From Octopus vulgaris (taxonomy: Eukaryota), in assembly GCA_951406725.2 (NCBI GenBank), contig OX597814.1, forward strand, positions 19,096,001 to 19,160,000: DNA of 64,000 bases, given 5' to 3'. Of this stretch, positions 7,252-62,030 are shown piece after piece. Within the stretch, counting starts at the first letter, position 1. The number at the start of each line of letters is the position of its first letter. The translations under genes were made by a program, and so were the position numbers. The notes beneath the pieces were generated by a model. That model ran no database searches. It was not told the DNA's origin and saw only the letters and a program-made list of their open reading frames with translations.

Positions 7252-7716
7252 TTAGGAATATTACACCCTTTACCGTCTTCAGCATTGTACAACTCAAAGT
7301 ACATAATTATAAACATTTACACCTACCCATACGAGTATATTGTTATTCACGAGCGAATGTACAAACATTCACACTTATATAACAAGCTAAGTCTAATTTG
7401 TCAACCTCAGCCGCCTGCCAATACAACCAAAATAATCACGGAAGTGGTTTATATTTATCTTTATAAAGATTTTAACCTTTATTATAAAGATAAATATAGA
7501 CCCCTTCAACCGATATATTGTTGATTTTATATATCTGACCATTGTCTGACCAGAAATATGCTGTAGGGCAAGTGACCGAGGAGGAGGAGGAGGAGAACAG
7601 ACGTGTGTCTGTACGGGGGGGGGGGGTTCTGTGTGCGTGCGCGCGTGCTTACATATATGTATTGTGCGTATGGTATGGAATAGCGTTTTTGTGTTTGTGT
7701 GTATGTGTTTGATGAC

Positions 7717-14989: not shown

Positions 14990-15407
14990 AAGGCGGCGAG
15001 CTGGCAGAAACGTTAGCACGCCGGGCGAAATGCGTAGCCGTATTTCGTCTGACGCTACGTTCTGAGTTAAAATCTCCGCCGAGGTTGACTTTGTCTTTCA
15101 TACTTTCGGGGGCGATTAAATAAGTACTAGTTACGCACTGGAACAATATAATCGACTTAATCCGTTTGTCTGTCCTTGCTTGTCCTCTCTGTGTTTAGTC
15201 CCTTGTGGGTAGTAAAGAAATAGGTATTTCGAATGACGTTACGTTCTGAGTTCAAATTCCGCCGAGATCGACTTTGACTTTCATCATTTCGGGGTCGATA
15301 AATAAAGTACCAGTTTCGCACTGGGGTCGATGTAATCGACTTTATCCCTTTGTCTGTCCTTGTTTGACCCCTCTATGTTTAGCTCCGTGTGGATAGTAAA
15401 GAAATAT
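14990..15407 (+). mobile_element. SINE family D dimer
   Basis: One head and two bodies joined at AAAGAAATA|GGTATTTCG. Confidence 0.9.
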
Positions 15408-18645: not shown

Positions 18646-19215
18646 TTACAGATTGCCATAGAGAGGTTTTTCTTGCCATTTATCATTCAGAATATCTAAG
18701 GCAGCAGTTTTAGCACGGGTTTTCATGCGCTTAGCTTTTTCTGTGCTTGTTTCTTGTATGTCTAATTCCGAAATTTGTTGTATTCGGAATTCACTTAGAT
18801 ATTCCTTTGCCTGTTTTGTTACTGAGTATGATGCTTTCTTGTTTTCATGTTTTGAGACAAGTTTTAACATCCAGTCCTCAGAGTTTTTCAGGAAGGTGTC
18901 TAGGCCAATTGTAGTAATCTTCATTGTTATTGCCAGTTGTAAAAGTCCACGGCCTCCCTCTTTTCTTGGCAGATAAAGTCGTTCTGTATCTGCCTTGGGG
19001 TGGTGCATTCTATGCATTCTCAACAGTTTTCGTATTTTTCTGTCAAGATTACATATTTCAGTAATTGACCAGTTAACGATATTGAAACTGTAAGTCACGA
19101 CTGGTATGGGTAAAATATTGATCGCTTCGATCCTGTTTCTTGCGCTCAGCTCTATCTTGAGTAATGCCCTTGACCTGCGATAACATTCTTTTCTGCTCTT
19201 TTCCCTCATCATTCA
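18646..19215 (-). mobile_element. R4/Dong-clade non-LTR retrotransposon fragment, copy 2
   Basis: 188-aa ORF: ELSARNRIEAINILPIPVVTYSF..W....LDRKIRKLL..RMHHPKADTERLYLPRKEGGRGL...WQEKPLYG. Confidence 0.85.
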
Positions 19216-23754: not shown

Positions 23755-25135
23755 ACATGGTGGTTGTCTACTCCTTCTACAGAGTTTGACCACCTCCTGT
23801 ACCTACACCTTAGCATCATCATGACGTCTGTGGTAGCTTTTTACACCAGATAATGTTCTAAAAAGACACCACATAGATTGTACCTCTAATTTGGACAAAC
23901 CAATACCTGCAGGTAAGTTCTTCTCTTTGTGGATCTTAATACGTCTTTTGAGGCCTCCGTTGGATTTGCAAATCTTCTGGCATACACTGCATTCAAACGT
24001 GTGCACAGACATATAGGCAGAATAGTTGGTGGAGATTCGTGTTCCATGCATTCATCTTCTCGATCGTTGCATTCTTCCTTAGATCTCTTTTAAGTCTTAC
24101 TTGTGTTATCCTGGCCTCTTCAAATGCTTTTACTCCACTCCACACCTTTGTTCTCCATTCACCTCGATCGGAAGCAAGCGTTTCTGTATCCCTGAAACAA
24201 TCCCAAGTGACTTCGTAGTAGTCTTTATGCCGTCCTTAAACCCTTTTTTTAAGGTTTACGCCGATAGTGTTTCCTCTCAGCAAGCTCACCATAAAACTGC
24301 TGTTTCGATATGTGTTCATTTGCCACACCATCTCAATTTGTTCCTCAAAATCATAGCTTTGAGGTGATGCTTGAGATGCAAGGAAATCTGTGTTTGGAGT
24401 AAAAGAACCCCATTTAATTTTTAAAATGCGATGAAGGCATTTTTGGTGGAATTTTTCTAACAATTTAAAATATCTTTCGTAACAAGTCCAAATTTCACAG
24501 AGATGGTAAGACAAATGATTTGTAAAGAGCCAGCTTTGTATTCTTGTTTATATGTTGCTGGCACCAAACGCGTGTCTCCAAGCCACCAAATGTTTTAGAT
24601 GCACTTTGAATCAGCAGCTGTATTTCTGTATCAAGATTTCCATCATTTTGAACAGAGCTTCTAAGGTAGACGAACGAATCGACAACCTCAAGTAACTTTC
24701 CCTTAACAAAAATGTTAGTGAGGTTACAAACAACACCACACGCAGGTTGATGCATTACAACTGCTTTTTTCAAGTTGATGGTGAAGCCAAAATCCTCACA
24801 AGCTGAGTCAAATGCATATACAAGAGATTGCAGACCTGTTTCAGAATGACTGACAAGATCGCAATCGTCAGCATACAAAGTTTCCTAATGTGTGAACTAA
24901 AAACCTTCGTTTTGAATTTCAGTCTGGTTACATTAAAAACATTCCCTGTTATTCGATATTTTATGTAAAAACCCGCCTCAGTGTTTTGAAAAGCATGTGA
25001 CAATACAGCCTCAAAGTATATTGCAAAGAGGGTGGGTGCACCAAGGTCTCCTTGCTTTACTCATTTTCCACAGCAAAAGATTCAGAGAGCCTACCACCAA
25101 AATTAACTCATGAGTGCTACTGGTAACATGTTATC
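23755..25135 (-). mobile_element. RTE (BovB-like) LINE, 5'-truncated and frameshifted
   Basis: VKQGDLGAPTLFAIYF, YADDCDLV..SETGLQ, FGFTINLKK, CEIWT, LEKFHQKCLHRILKIKW, C-terminal CSVCQKICKSNGGL zinc finger. Confidence 0.9.
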
Positions 25136-25321: not shown

Positions 25322-25630
25322 TGGCTGTGTGCTAGTGAGTGGACAAATTAATGAAGAGGTACTCAATACATTTTGTAGAAGTCATATTATTTAAAACAGT
25401 TTGATTTGGTCCCACTCGGCTTAAACTTTCGTAGGCTTCTTATAGGAAAGTAGCATATTGGGCTGTGATTCGACTACCTGACCTAGAATAGCTAGGTTCC
25501 TGTAATGAACCTACGGAACTTTAAGTTACATGGGGAAGAATCAAACTGTTTTAAATAACAAGGAATATAATTCCTATTAAATGAATTGAGTGCCCCTTTC
25601 TGTCGTTTGTCCATTCATTAGCATGGCCAC
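25322..25630. mobile_element. Diverged fold-back element (~310 bp) with hammerhead remnant
   Basis: TTATTTAAAACAGTTTGATT is inverted to AATCAAACTGTTTTAAATAA; outer GCTAGTGAGTGGACAAA is inverted to TTTGTCCATTCATTAGC; related to 11486-11600. Confidence 0.6.
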
Positions 25631-28391: not shown

Positions 28392-28467
<76 letters not shown>

Positions 28468-28471
<4 letters not shown>

Positions 28472-28870
28472 TGTAGGAAGAAATGGAGCTGAACGAAGAT
28501 TTAACAAAATTCCTTTTTATTATTTTCTACATATGTTTCGAAGGCTGCAAAGTCCCTAATTCGGATTGAATAAGGAGTCCATTTTCCTGAAGAGAAGGCT
28601 GCAAAATGGACTCCTTATTCAATCCGAATTAGGGACTTTGCAGCCTTCGAAACATATGTAGAAAATAATAAAAAGGAATTTTGTTAAATCTTCGTTCAGC
28701 GCCATTTCTTCCTACACTTAATATATAAAACTTCAAGTTTCCGCACTAAGGCACGGATTTTATGCCCCATGGTCGTAACTTCAACCGTGCTTTTCCTGTT
28801 GTGATTTTTGCTACCCAGGTATCGGTTATCATTTGAATTATCCGTAATAAGATAATTCATTTATCTACTT

Positions 28871-28872
<2 letters not shown>
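28468..28872 (+). mobile_element. Palindromic non-autonomous PLE/retrozyme-like element in (TA)n
   Basis: 118-bp arms 28468-28585 and 28603-28720 with one visible mismatch, 17-nt spacer, ~150-bp one-sided extension. Confidence 0.8.
28581..28666 (+). ncRNA. Canonical type I hammerhead ribozyme
   Basis: Stem I ATTTTC/GAAAAT; core CTGAAGA; 12-bp stem II GAAGGCTGCAAA/TTTGCAGCCTTC; GAAA; stem III AC-ATAT-GT; predicted GUA cleavage after 28660. Confidence 0.85.
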
Positions 28873-28917
<45 letters not shown>

Positions 28918-29335
28918 GTATATATGTATGTATGTATGGATGTATGTATGTGTATATATATATATATATATATGCATGCATATAAGTGTACAAGACGTCA
29001 TCAACGGTGCAAATAACATGGAATACTTAAACAAACGAATTAACTAGTATACACCGAGAAAAAATGGAAAACAGGACAAGTAAACAGAGAAAGGACAGTT
29101 GTCGGCTGTCCTCATTTCCAACATTCAATCACAATATGAGTCTTCAAAGACAGGTGCTCCCATAAATTCTAAAATAAAATTTAGGCTTTATGGAGTGGCA
29201 AAGTTGGGAACAAAATCATGGCAGTGGAGACGTACAAAGAAACCTAACGAAAACAAACATGAAGGGTCGTTAGACCAGAACGATAGGAAAATAGTGAACG
29301 CTGGGAGAAACATCTTTTTCAAAAGAGTTAATATA

Positions 29336-33060: not shown

Positions 33061-33305
33061 CACACACACACATACACACACACATACATACACACACATA
33101 CATACATACACACATACATACATACATACATATACATACATACATACATACATACATATACATACATACATACACACACACACATGCACACACACACAGT
33201 ATTGAAGCTTGAGAACAATCAGATACATTTGCAACACATCTGTTGAAAATATTATTGTTCACACACATACATATACATATATACATACAGACAGACAGAC
33301 AGATA

Positions 33306-33341
<36 letters not shown>

Positions 33342-33389
33342 ATCCAGCATGGCCACAACCTCAAGGCTGAAACATATAAAAGAATAACA

Positions 33390-33755
33390 GAATATAAATG
33401 TGTGCAAAGTACAAGAAATATTAATGCAGTATATGGGGATTGGACAATAAGCGTAAGGCAGTGTCAATGGTGGTTCCAGAAATCCCGAGCCATAAACTAC
33501 AGCCTAGAAGACGAGCCTCATCCTGAAAGATCTGTAGAACTCGACAAGGACATCCTGAAAACCCTGGTGGAACAAAATATCATCGTAACTGTTGAGGAAC
33601 TAGCAGAGAAGCTTGGATTTGGTCATTCAACCATTCATTGACACCTGTGTGCTATCGGAAAAGTCAGCAAATTGGGTCAATGGGTTCCTCACGAACTTTC
33701 CGAGTCTAATTGCATGCAGAGAGTGAATGTATGCTTTTCTTTGCTGTCATATCTC
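33390..33755 (+). pseudogene. Mariner transposase N-terminal (HTH) fragment
   Basis: RNINAVYGD..ISVRQCQWWFQK...SLEDEP...TVEELAEKLG..HSTIH*HL..IGKVSKLGQWVPHELS. Confidence 0.9.
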
Positions 33756-35234: not shown

Positions 35235-35700
35235 ATAGAATGGTTGTATACTGTCAATCTAACGTGAACGTGACAGTAGGGGGTTACACCACCGCTGTTT
35301 AGCCCTAGGAAGCATCGACGCCTCCTGATAGCTTTGACACATTTTTCTGTGTCCTTATATACATTTACGAAGGGGAGACAAACACTCCCAGCAGCCAGGC
35401 CTCAACAGCTGACGAGCGTCTGCTACTCTAGACCGTTGAAGAACAATGATCCTGAAACATGCGTGTCTCTAGATGCAGGCCTGGCTGCTGGGGGTGTTTG
35501 TCTCCTCTTCGTAAATGTATATAAGGACACAGAAACATGTGTCAAAGCCATCAGGAGGCGTCGATGCTTCCTAGGGCTAAACAGCGGTGGTGTAACCCCT
35601 ACTGTCACGTTCACGTTAGATTGACAGTATACAACCATTCTATCGTCCCACCACCGTACATATCTCTATGAGAGATTTAGAAATTCAATATTTCTGATAT
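35235..35700. mobile_element. Fold-back element, ~167-bp arms, 74-nt loop, one-sided extension
   Basis: 35235-35402 is the near-perfect reverse complement of 35477-35643. Confidence 0.85.
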
Positions 35701-40080: not shown

Positions 40081-40613
40081 GGATATATACATATATGCAT
40101 ATAGGAATGTTTGCATGTATGTTTATGGGATGAATTTTTCCTTCTGGGGGTTAACGGGCCATCTGCCCATCTGCTCAGTGTTGTGCGACAAGCAAAAGCC
40201 GATATCTGATTAGAAACTGAACGGCGATGCAAAGCATCAAATGAAAAGAAATGTACTTTTCATCCTCCTCCTTATCCTTTTCACTCAGCCTTTTCTCCTC
40301 CTCCTTCATTTTCTCTCTCTCTCTCCCCACTCTCCCTTTCTCTTTCTTTTTCTCCCTCTCTCGCTTTCGCTCGCTCGCTCGCGCGCGCTTTCTCGCTTTC
40401 ATCTTACTCAAAGGGTGAGTGGTACCAGCGGCTGACACTCGTACTGACTGTATAGGGATTACGGTTGTGTTTATTCATGGATCAGAACATGTCCGAAGTA
40501 GCGTCCGAGTTTGGCGTGTAGGCATGCGTAGGGATTAACATTTGTTTTGTCTTATGCCTCTGAGGAACGTTTCTGACAAACGCATACGCGCACACACAAA
40601 CAAATACGTAGAT

Positions 40614-42208: not shown

Positions 42209-43454
42209 TCAGGCTGGTGCAAAAGTAATTTCCGATTTAAAGAGCTAAGGTTAAAATGAATAAGCCAATGACTATGGAAATATTTATTCATTAACATACT
42301 TACCATTGCTTTCAGTGACCTCATTCCATCTTTCAACAACCTTATAACTGCCTCGCTTGTAAAATCCTTTAGGTTTAGAACCAAAATATGAATCTCTTCT
42401 CTTGTTTTTAACCTAAGTCCATAAAAATGGTTCTGTAATCCTCGGTACAAATGGTAATCAGAAGGAGTAAGGTCAGGAGAATATGGAGGATGAGGCAGTA
42501 TTTCCCATCCAATTCTTCCAAGAGAGTTTTGGTCAGTCGAGCTGTGTGAGGACGAGCATTATCGTGATGGAAGATGACACCCCGTCTGTTAACCAAGGAT
42601 GCTCGCTTTTAGCTCAGAACAGTTTTCTAACGACGAAGTTGCACACAGTTAAGATTAGCATTAATTGTTTGGCTGTTGTCCAACAGTTCATAATGGATTA
42701 CTCCTTTAATACCCTACCATGCACTCAACATGATCTTCTTTGGCTGAAGTCCAGCTCTCGGTTGTTGAATTTGGCCGTCCTCTTCGACTGATCCAAGAAC
42801 GGCGGCGTTTAAAATTATGGTAAAGAATTCACTTCTCATCACCTGTAACAAGCCTGTCTAAAACTGTTGCTTGAAAGTTTCGCGAAAGCAATGATTGACA
42901 ACAAGCAGCACGCTGTTGTCGATTCCCTGGAGACAGCTCGAGAAGGACCCATTTTCCAGCCACTGAAACCTACTCAATGTGTTTTAGCAGGCGTACCACG
43001 GTTGTATGGGCCACGTTTAACTGTTTTGCAAGTTCCCTAGTGGTAACAGAAGGGTTCTCTGAAACAAGAGATTCCAACATTTCGGAATTAAGTTTTGGGG
43101 ACGACCCTCTTTTGGTCCTTCTTTCAAAGTGAAATCCCCTCTTCGGAAACGGCAAAACCACCTCCTGCACCTTCTTTCATTCACTACATCATCCCCATAA
43201 ATGCTCTGAATGGATCTTGCTGCCGCACTTGCATTAACACCTTTATGAAACTCGTAGAGTAAAACATTTCTTATGTGATCTTTAGATGGGACAAATATGG
43301 TGGTAAAATTTTCTGAGAATTATGGCCAGAAGTTAGATGATCTGAAAGAAAATAGTACAAATTAGACACAGAGATATCTTAAAAGAGGTTAGAAAATTAA
43401 TAAATTTGATCTGAAACACTTTTTCTAGAAATCGGACTTCACTTTTGCACCAAC

Positions 43455-43533: not shown

Positions 43534-43909
43534 ATACGGGTAGAAATTGATATTAATTAAGTAAAATCAGTGGCCTAGCATATTTCTAAAAAAAATCGAT
43601 GATTAGAAATTTTATACATACAAAATTTAGAGGAATGACCACTAATAGTGGACTGTATGTATGCTAGAAATAGACGTAAAACTCGCCATTTACCACGAAG
43701 AATGTGTTCTCAAGAAAAAATTCAGCAAAAATCCAAGGTGTAAAAATAAGCAAGACAACTATTTATATTTTTATTTTTATTTTTATTTTTTATTTCGTAT
43801 ATTTTCATATGTCTTGCTTATTTTTACACTTTGTTTTTTTGCTGAATGTTTTCTTGAGAACACATTCTTCGTGGTAAATGGCGAGTTTAACGTCTATTTC
43901 TAGCATACA
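43525..43909. mobile_element. Fold-back element, ~100-bp arms plus one-sided extension ending in (TA)n
   Basis: 43658-43757 is inverted relative to 43810-43909. Confidence 0.8.
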
Positions 43910-44776
43910 GGAAAATTAAATAAGGAGACGAATGCTCAGGATGTTGTTAAAACGTTTATATCTTGAGTTTTTCTTCTTACTTCTTTCGAAGGATGCACTC
44001 CAGCATTTAGCTACATTGTAATTATTCCCCTGGATTTTTCCTATAAATTGCAAACTGTGTGGGAGGGGGCTGTGCGCGCGCGTATGTGTGTGTGTATGCG
44101 AATGTGTAAACGTATATATGTCTGTCAGAAGCCTGGTGTCTTTGTGTGATTGTGTTCGCACGTATGTGTATCAGAATGCACGCACACATTCACGCACACA
44201 GACATACATATATATATATATTTATTCTTTTATTCTTTTATATATTTCCGCCGTCTGACTGCAGCCATGCTAGAGCACCCACCGCCTCTTCGTCGAAGAA
44301 ATCGACCCCAAGACATATTCTTTTTAGCCTGGCAATAATTCTATCAGTTTCTTTTACCGAACCGCTAAGTTACGAGGGTGTAAACACACCAACATCTGTT
44401 GTCAAGTGTTTGTTTCAACAATTGTTGGCTTACTAATTAATGGTATAAAAGTATTGGATTAAAAAAAAAAACATTAAATTGCGAATCAAAAGACATGATT
44501 AAATGATAGACATTTTTACGAAATTCTATAATATCCAAAAAGAACGGCGAATAATATGAAAAATGTAGATCAACATGTTTAAATGATTAAATGTTCTCAA
44601 AATTCAATATCACCAGAATTGGTCGGCGAAGAATATAAAAAATGTGGCTTACCTAAATTTCAGTCATACTAAGTCAAGGGAGGGAAGAAAAATGAAAAGA
44701 AGAAAGTAAAGAATAGGGGTTTTGTTACAGTATATGTCACCTTGTATTCTCTTTTCCGTCGCGTGAAGGGTTTTTG

Positions 44777-59212: not shown

Positions 59213-59942
59213 TAGAGAAGAGAGAGGTTTATGAGTATGTATGCATCTATGTATGTATGTATGTATGTATATATGTAGATAGGTAGGTAGGTATGTAGGT
59301 AGGTAGGTAGGGTAGGTAGGCAGGTAGGCTCAATATTATATGTAATTTGTCTCGACTTTATGCATGTCAAGGTATCCAACGACTTTTGATTTAGAGAGTT
59401 TTTCTTATTTTCTAAAAGGGAACAGATGGATAAATGGACTAAAGGCGTTTGTGCTGCTCTGGTAGTAGGGAGTCACAATAATCTGGTGCTTTATGTTGTA
59501 GAGAAATGCAGCCAAATACATTATACAGTTACAGAAAATTTTGGCAATACTTCATGGATATTTTATTTTTACGATATGACGACAGATGTTTCAATACAGA
59601 ACTTTGCAACAGTCTCCTTTTATAAGAAGTTTGCCTATAGGAGGTTTCCGATTCTGAATATATCTCTCATTCCTCTTCTTTTCACTTTTCATATACAGTA
59701 ATTTTACACAAGATTTTTGCAAACATTCAACGTAGTTATGATAGTATATCGTTCATTCTAGCGACCTAGAGAATATAAAGTTATAGGAGCAGATGTGACT
59801 GTGTGATAAGGAGCGTGCTCCCCAACCATATGGTTCCGGGTTGAGTTCCACTTGGGCAATTGTCTTCGACTATGGCCCTGTGAGTGGATTTGGTAGACGA
59901 AAACTGAAAAAAGCCCCCTCGTGTACGTACACACAAACACAC

Positions 59943-60871
59943 ACGTAAAGGTGGACTACTCAACATCCAGGAATGTAAGTACAAAAATTTCCTCTATAAA
60001 TAAAAAATAAATTAAATAATTATTATAATGGCACAATGAATAATAGCTCTAGCAATTATACAACCGATAGTAAAGGGAGTCATAATCAACAGATAAAAAT
60101 ATGTTCATGTCCTGATAAGACTAAATGTAAGCTCTCTAATAATTGTAATGTTGATAATGTAATTTATAAATGTATAGTAAACTCTAAGAACAAGAATAAT
60201 AAAATTATGAATAAGGTTTATATAGGATCTGCAGCTAAAGAAATTAATAAAAGAATCTCTCAACACTACCAGACTTTCAAAATCCTAATTTAAATAAATT
60301 CACGGGTTTAAGTAAATATATATGGAAATTAAAATCTCGAAAAATAGACTACACCATTAGATGAGTATAACAGGTAGAGCCCACTCTTATAACATTGGCA
60401 ATAAAATGTGTTGATTATGTATAACAGAATTTATGAAACTATTACAGTCTAGAGATGAATTATGAAACACATACGATGAACGAGGTGTTAAATGTAGACA
60501 CAAAAGTAAGTTTACTTTCAATAAAATGAAATACTGTACACCCACCCTTGAATCTAATAATCATGCACTTTTGATTTCTACAGCACTTGAATAGATCATA
60601 TAAATAATTAATTAAATATTACTGAAAATTATTTTATAACAAATTATATATTTTTTGGCTAATTCTGAAATTAAATCAGCAGTTTATATTTGCTGCTGAT
60701 AAGTTGGCGCGATGACGGTAGATTTTGAAAGTTTAGAGTATATATTCCCGAGGCATCGATGCTGTTGCCTCCGGAATACATATTCCCTGGCTTCTTTGCC
60801 GATGAGACGGGCCAGTGGTAAATTGATTTAATTAAATTTAATTTAATTTAATTAAGCTGGTTTTCCAAAAT

Positions 60872-60920: not shown

Positions 60921-61162
60921 AACATATACTTCAAACTATATATCAACTATACATGAACTATATATCAACTATACATGAACTCTAAGATATCTGACTCCGT
61001 TGTGTATTATAAATGAATTTCTTGTGTTTGACGGCATGAGCTGTCTCTTTTTATATATAACTTTTTTTGATAAGGTTCATTTCAGGAACTGAAACATGTT
61101 ATAATGTATATATAAAAATTAAAAATTGTATAATACAGCAGCATTTTCGAACTTCATTTTTT

Positions 61163-61223
<61 letters not shown>

Positions 61224-61318
61224 CTCTGCAGTGATAACCATGACTTTGAGCCCCAGTCTCAACCCATGGCTCGCCACTTCAACCTTCATTGATATCCACT
61301 CACCACTATTCACACCAC

Positions 61319-62030
61319 CCGTAAAGGTGGACTACTCAACATCGAGGAATGTAGGTACAATCATTTCTTCTATAAATAAAAATAAATTAAATAATTATTA
61401 TAATGGCACAATGAATAATAGCTCTAGCAATTATACAACCGATAGTAAAGGGAGTCATAATCAACAGATAAAAATATGTTCATGTCCTGATAAGACTAAA
61501 TGTAAACTCTCTAATAATTGTAATGTTGATAATGTAATTTATAAATGTATAGTAAACTCTAAGAACAAGAATAATAAAATTATGAATAAGGTTTATATAG
61601 GATCTGCAGCTAAAGAAATTAATAAAAGAATCTCTCGACACTACCAGACTTTCAAAATCCTAATTTAAATAAATTCACGGGTTTAAGTAAATATATATAT
61701 GGTAATTGAAATCTCGAAAAATAGACTACAACCTTAGATGAGTATAACAGGTAGAGCCCACTCTTATAATATTGGCAATAAAATGTGTTGATTATGTATA
61801 ACAGAATTTATGAAACTATTACAGTCTAGAGATGAATTATGAAACACATACGATGAACGAGGAGTTAAATGTAGACACAAAAGTAATTTTACTTTCAATA
61901 AAATGAAATACTGTACACCCACCCTTGAATCTAATAATCATGCACTTTTGATTTCTACAGCACTTGAATAGATCATATAAATAATTAATTAAATATTACT
62001 GAAAATTATTTTATAACAAATTATATATAT
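61319..62030 (+). mobile_element. Penelope-like element GIY-YIG fragment, copy 2
   Basis: Near-identical direct repeat of 59943-60650 sharing the same disabling stops. Confidence 0.88.

Follow-up and report, generated by a model that had tools for sequence, protein, structure and literature searches.

The near-perfect palindrome at 28468-28872 of the Octopus vulgaris window (the whole 64-kb stretch analyzed here) is very probably a stump made by the proteins of a Penelope-like element (PLE), whichever priming route was taken, a judgment that draws on sequence features and on their agreement with published insertions. It probably entered a (TA)n run with most of its 5' portion missing, and is likely dead. 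The PLE connection proposed in the initial annotation holds up well, as the truncated copy, inverted neighbor, one-sided tail, hammerhead and (TA)n target together match published PLE insertions in all but the length of the tail. These are described as strongly 5'-truncated, often with an inverted truncated copy beside the 5' end, with a 30-40 bp tail often found at one end only, a hammerhead inside the pseudo-LTR, and a preference for microsatellites, (TA)n among them (PMC8557442). The same features are set out for curators in PMC8969392, and in PMC3846280 the inverted pLTR overlaps the direct one by 15 bp, with such junctions interpreted as self-priming and the question left open. Recently active Penelope-like families are on record for Octopus vulgaris, PMC13282606 giving 31 families and 336 insertions.

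Layout of the palindrome

The 405-base palindrome consists of two 118-nt arms with 17 nt between them. The left arm (28468-28585, minus strand) is an inverted copy of 28603-28720; the spacer (28586-28602, plus strand) carries the CUGANGA core and most of the helix II 5' strand of a hammerhead motif; and the right arm (28603-28720, plus strand) is the forward copy, which continues into a one-sided extension, or tail, at 28721-28872 (plus strand, 152 nt, with a 9-bp hairpin at 28834-28859). AT-type microsatellites, both (TA)n runs, lie at 28395-28469 and 28873-28973 and are likely the two halves of the insertion target; within them a target-site duplication is indistinguishable. This recovers the outline first noted from the letters, namely 118-bp inverted arms with a single mismatch, (TA)n on both sides, and an extension of about 150 bp on one. 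At the junction, 28581-28585 is complementary to 28603-28607 on the same strand, a 5-nt overlap that doubles as the helix I 5' strand and that, besides helix II, is the only inverted match of at least 5 nt within 28581-28660. The left arm lacks the tail, and its outer end falls at the short 3' end of the repeat family, inside a TA-rich patch (28714-28727, plus strand) that is likely the inner priming site. The short and long ends are weakly alike, at 20 of 26 aligned columns with TA letters counted. A 5'-truncated copy, a head-to-head inverted copy of the 3' end and a short overlap are thus all present, and some family contigs go on 5' of the junction. The AT-rich microsatellite target is present here, further copies also enter TA repeats, and the tail stands at one end only, with a length of 145-152 nt against the 30-40 bp published.

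Near-perfect arms between microsatellites, with a junction that is unspanned among the contigs listed, could in principle be an assembly or library fold-back artifact of a repeat copy, a caveat already raised in the initial annotation. We regard this as very unlikely and the palindrome as real. The sole mismatch (28487 vs 28701) sets a left-arm base shared by ~100% of the family depth against a right-arm base private to this copy. The left arm also halts at the natural short end of the family and does not run into the tail, as a copying artifact would, and both the 5-nt overlap and the layout are as described for PLEs. The accompanying claim that the element is young is fair yet loose: this copy departs from 82-100% of public-contig depth at the listed sites 28701, 28737 and 28795.

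Stop-free frames that open with an ATG reach no further than about 25 codons in the tail, and the ATG in question is variable among family contigs. Its best-covered part across subfamilies, 28797-28832, includes a pyrimidine run and CAG-GT that might serve in splicing or in protein binding; among contigs aligned from four runs, no joint supports the splice-site-like stretch around 28818.

We found no RT or GIY-YIG sequence linked to the element, either beside it or elsewhere in the window, and the loose ends of family contigs are visible over 30 letters only. Two broken 3' ends of a PLE ORF, 97.5% alike, lie on the plus strand at 59940-60651 and 61316-62028; they carry a cysteine linker, GIY-YIG-like and terminal C/H motifs, and match full-length RT-bearing proteins by tblastn (E 5e-14). 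Their clade is presumably Nematis-like. PLEs therefore occur in this genome, as these broken endonuclease ends attest. No similarity was found between the remnants and the palindrome element. The source RNA may have come from a coding PLE or from a non-coding derivative, perhaps of retrozyme type.

A hammerhead motif that overlaps the junction

A type I hammerhead motif lies on the plus strand at 28581-28666, with a predicted cut after 28660. Helix I pairs 28581-28586 with 28661-28666 (6 bp) and is followed by the core at 28587-28593, a 12-bp helix II (28594-28605 with 28637-28648) closed by a 31-nt loop, GAAA at 28649-28652 and the triplet GUA at 28658-28660. Helix III amounts to one pair and a 4-nt loop within a perfect 8-nt palindrome (28652-28659), whose self-duplex is predicted at -7.0 kcal/mol. 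The full core, all three helices and an NUH triplet bear out the initial reading of a type I hammerhead with a palindromic helix III. That reading had also built the complete motif from the spacer and right arm, and here the motif stands while the sufficiency of those two parts does not: of the six bases in the helix I 5' strand, five (28581-28585) belong to the left arm as its final five, and ribozyme and junction therefore overlap. The left arm lacks the 5' core, and the minus strand accordingly has no hammerhead.

The motif is beyond chance. It is the only match to our type I hammerhead descriptor on either strand of the window, and when the same descriptor was applied to 100 dinucleotide shuffles of the window, matches appeared in none of the 100 with helix II of at least 8 bp and helix I of at least 5 bp, in 1 of 100 at 4 and 4 bp, and in 11 of 100 at 3 and 4 bp. 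The 93-nt hammerhead region folds with a z of -3.4. Cleavage, as modeled, would likely be dimer-dependent, given a helix III of one pair and a palindromic loop; PMC4209133 describes most PLE ribozymes as single motifs of truncated copies with a palindromic helix III, inactive as monomers and of low activity as dimers.

A search with hammerhead models, which the initial annotation had looked to for recognition of the motif, did not provide it: nothing in the window reached the Rfam gathering score, and the 23 weak matches within 28400-28950 included no hammerhead family. This miss likely comes from the long helix II, and an Rfam match does not define the ribozyme class. The miRNA-type Rfam matches fall below gathering score and reflect the hairpin, and we set them aside. 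Elsewhere in the window, at 61067-61105 (plus strand), a candidate decayed hammerhead-like motif has two core mismatches, a 5-bp helix II and a palindromic helix III. It is flanked on each side by a (TA)n run and lies in the interval that separates the PLE remnants.

A large and varied repeat family

The sequence at 28586-28872 is present in 20 of 24 listed runs from 9 studies under three organism labels. Alignment of four runs to 28545-28882 gave 1052, 852, 559 and 61 contigs that are 80-100% alike, with a summed depth of several hundred thousand against 20-60 for single long diverged contigs, a figure that is not a copy count. These data show a large family with subfamilies. Among 24 of 156 loose-end rows, at least 7 contigs in run X5 and at least 7 in run X8 end near 28727 and then enter a TA repeat. 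Of the 32 pieces listed, 6 extend 31 letters or more to either side of 28727, linking the tail to the hammerhead part in diverged copies, which makes the extension a part of the family. In the 5' direction, contigs match up to 28581-28583 and then continue in other letters (records 17 and 18 of X8, and loose ends in X2 and X9, one of 158 letters), and depth left of the junction relative to the right is 0.08, 0.23, 0.18 and 0.04 in the four runs, with left-side depth that may itself come from right-arm contigs. It follows that the overlap bases are the family's own, that the family reaches further 5', and that the junction is not a fixed family feature. No contig crosses this junction among the 32 of 2542 aligned pieces that were listed. 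One X5 contig joins 28629 to 28602 across 9 extra letters in an unstated direction; this may be another junction and was not counted. In one X9 contig 30 letters upstream of 28583 appear, judged by eye, weakly like the left arm.

The expectation that other copies would conserve the core is borne out in a multi-copy family whose listed variants spare all 13 core positions. Of the 49 core-plus-helix positions one varies (G-C to G-U), compared with 37 of the 243 remaining positions (Fisher p 0.009), and within the ribozyme the contrast is 1 of 49 against 6 of 37 free positions (p 0.039). This tally uses 40 of 68 variant rows, or 38 sites, and leaves aside an infrequent deletion of three letters in helix I, at 28662. 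A variant in loop III retains the palindromic pairing through a G-U pair, and the triplet alternates between GUA and GUC.

No second copy was found in the 64-kb window by blastn or tiled local alignment; a look-alike near 43970 scored 68, inside the background (mean 63, maximum 94). A gapped hammerhead pattern had no match in metagenome contigs and none in viral contigs. A 20-nt pattern hit seven metagenome loci over spans of only 20-22 nt, and one genome-contig match lay inside an apparent bacterial gene, all of which we judged to be chance.

The family's shape bears on whether the element could instead be a miniature inverted-repeat DNA transposon (MITE), or a repair-made palindrome with an incidental hammerhead. 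The window does hold mariner remnants and several other palindromes, and the element's flanks are TA. Yet the unit is asymmetric, since the tail lies beyond the right arm; contigs of the family extend over the forward copy and the tail, and in the main not over the junction; and the hammerhead is beyond chance. The terminal inverted repeats that would bound every copy of a MITE are absent, left/right depth being 0.04-0.23. We consider this origin highly improbable and retain that of a PLE stump.

Folding of a read-through RNA

The initial annotation proposed that a read-through transcript could fold either as ribozyme or as a hairpin that sequesters it. Predicted folding argues against such a two-way fold. 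The whole element folds at -230.8 kcal/mol and the 118-bp hairpin at -199.8 kcal/mol; with the left arm present, imposing helices I and II costs 87.2 kcal/mol and their predicted pairing probability is 0.000. The hairpin is thus ahead by 87 kcal/mol and would also form first, since the left arm is transcribed first. When the RNA start is moved 5' from 28581, the predicted probability of helix II falls from 0.91 (start at 28569) to 0.004 (start at 28566), so that 15 nt of arm upstream of helix I suffice to abolish it. A 101-nt piece without the arm does take the hammerhead fold, with predicted probabilities of 0.53 and 0.94 for helices I and II, and helix I is lost again once the armless RNA reaches the long end. 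A plus-strand read-through RNA of this locus is therefore predicted to form the 118-bp hairpin and never the ribozyme, which would be a passenger. Such a hairpin could be edited or diced, as any long hairpin could.

These predictions weigh on the idea that the element is a non-coding, ribozyme-processed unit whose palindrome was already in the master copy and works as a switch at the RNA level or supplies dsRNA to ADAR or Dicer. An intact core, helices spared in the listed variants, and many copies are what such a unit would show; the -199.8 kcal/mol hairpin would form in any read-through RNA; and left-arm depth of up to 0.23 could partly reflect a recurrent junction. Against this stand the missing two-state fold, with its gap of 87 kcal/mol, and ends that lie away from the predicted cut. 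The unit is also single, with no tandem and no joint among the contigs listed, and most family depth ends at 28581. Nor was a host exon found among 148 of the 262 complex frames of at least 50 aa and 9 longer frames searched against Pfam, a scan that returned only transposon domains and sub-threshold matches and would miss short exons. On balance we find this reading very unlikely, and prefer a PLE stump in which the palindrome arose at insertion.

Among the runs listed as carrying the stretch, none is on record as RNA, which speaks neither for nor against transcription. Run X9, which is RNA by guess only, has 11 A>G places against 4-5 in DNA runs. We do not read these as A-to-I editing, because subfamily differences would look alike and 46 of 61 contigs are less than 95% alike. 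The only hint of a host exon among the 148 frames is a weak Serinc match at 40178-40474 (minus strand), with an E of 5.5e-4 that is below the Pfam cut-off.

How the insertion was made

Within the PLE reading, we give about an even chance to a route in which two cDNAs, one primed from each nicked target strand, were joined head to head, and we favor this over fold-back of a single cDNA. By this route, a GIY-YIG endonuclease would nick both strands of the (TA)n run, as PLE biochemistry suggests. One 3' end would then prime at position 28872, the long end, and its partner within the TA-rich patch farther in (28720-28727). Both copies would pass the predicted ribozyme cut, one reaching 28581 and the other 28603, where the arms are in fact seen to end. 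Their complementary 3' ends (5 nt) would anneal and be filled in, and the expected product, a tail-less inverted arm beside a tailed forward copy, is the layout found here. Since both arms pass the predicted cut at 28660, the template must have been uncut or re-ligated, and since neither end lies at that cut, the ends were not set by the ribozyme. In PMC11167929, uncut RNA is the main template, and ribozyme mutants of the one PLE tested in vitro inserted normally. The same source reports that both strands at an AT-rich target are cut and then extended by the PLE protein, which is modeled as a dimer and starts in vitro at two internal RNA sites bounding the tail. In the present family, the left arm stops at most 7 nt from where other copies enter (TA)n.

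The arms agree closely: of 13 arm sites tabulated, 12 carry the allele of this copy in both arms, and at the exception, 28701, the family base stands in the left arm. This is where the two-cDNA route is least comfortable, as independent stops 22 nt apart with identical alleles fit fold-back more simply. In a fold-back, one cDNA would have run to 28581, its 3' end would have paired with its own copy of 28603-28607 and copied back, and the product would have joined (TA)n at the TA-rich patch, leaving a PLE stump by self-priming. The short 17-nt loop and the allele identity of the arms then need no further assumptions; a random second copy would match five spaced sites about 2-5% of the time if the sites were independent, which they are not. 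The internal TA patch gives microhomology for the last join, and PMC3846280 takes junction palindromes as self-priming. Several points count against it. The hairpin needed for fold-back is weak, at -1.1 kcal/mol when taken by itself. In a free first cDNA it is predicted at -4.2 kcal/mol, some 10 kcal/mol short of the -14.7 kcal/mol of the helix II mirror with which it would compete. The copying must also halt exactly where other copies end, and in vitro both strands prime at two internal sites (PMC11167929). We hold fold-back to be a distinct possibility, if one we lean away from.

Extending the preferred two-cDNA route, we tentatively propose, at somewhat under an even chance, that this family bears the mark of twin priming by a PLE protein dimer, in which TA-rich 3' ends about 150 nt apart pair with nicked (TA)n and the cDNAs join by microhomology. 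The terms "twin priming" and "pLTR" were not found together in any of the 10 papers listed by a search of the open literature.

Window context and significance

The 64-kb window is AT-rich, with many microsatellites and transposon remnants. A second large palindrome lies at 35235-35643, with arms of about 170 bp and a spacer that has both hammerhead core halves and, by eye, no closed helices; it could be a PLE fold-back of greater age, or else a MITE. Four more palindromes, 67-294 bp in size and lacking hammerhead cores, lie at 2828-2970, 7441-7507, 25330-25623 and 43658-43909. A dispersed repeat of about 390 bp, presumably SINE-like, contains an internal direct repeat; it occurs at 14990-15380 and in no fewer than 10 further places, and its copies are 83-90% alike. 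Remnants of mariner HTH_48 and of non-LTR reverse transcriptases are found at 43017-43319 (minus), 33213-33641 (plus), 24495-24884 (minus) and 18646-19212 (minus).

The locus belongs to a described kind, that of PLE insertion products, and is a single stump among many. What sets it apart is the tail, which at about 150 nt is four to five times as long as the 30-40 bp in print. As a compact and clean insertion product, it bears on a question that the cited papers leave open, that of self-priming versus both-strand priming. That question becomes testable in a family whose long tail has two ends resembling the target, and the family is apparently large and varied enough for the priming route to be decided by computation alone. 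If such stumps sit in introns, each would add a perfect hairpin of more than 100 bp, a general source of dsRNA.

Comparison with known systems

The closest layout is that of endonuclease-bearing PLE units, as given in PMC8557442 (Fig. 2), PMC3846280 (Pen2a/Pen2) and PMC8969392. These share with our element the truncation, the inverted copy, the overlap and the one-sided tail, and likewise the hammerhead in the terminal repeat and the microsatellite target. This copy differs from them in being without any ORF, in an overlap of 5 nt vs 15 bp in Pen2a, and in a tail of 145-152 nt vs 30-40 bp.

The motif itself resembles the type I hammerheads of metazoan PLEs (PMC4209133; reviewed in PMC6765202) and the axolotl HHR_Amex1 (PMC7229834). 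The full core with G10.1-C11.1, a 6-bp helix I, a one-pair helix III with a palindromic tetraloop, and a long helix II are shared, and the motifs are mostly single and from truncated copies, as here. Our helix II is 12 bp long with a structured 31-nt loop, whereas schistosome motifs have 7-8 bp. The present motif also needs no unpaired base after A9, has no Rfam match, and is a predicted one.

Non-LTR retrozymes (PMC7229834; bioRxiv 10.64898/2026.07.22.740005) share the size of about 300 nt, the non-coding nature, low GC and a type I hammerhead, as well as many copies and a relation to PLEs. They are, in contrast, head-to-tail tandems that give circular RNA, and here there is one unit with a head-to-head inverted arm. 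We found no head-to-tail tandem units in the window, and no such joint was listed across four short-contig runs, which is weak evidence as regards the family as a whole.

For the insertion step, the nearest parallel is PAc (Poseidon of Anolis carolinensis, PMC11167929), which shares two internal 3' ends past the cut, an AT-rich target and an uncut template. In PAc, however, the start sites lack homology to the target and are separated by 30-40 nt, whereas the two ends here are both TA-rich, target-like and about 150 nt apart.
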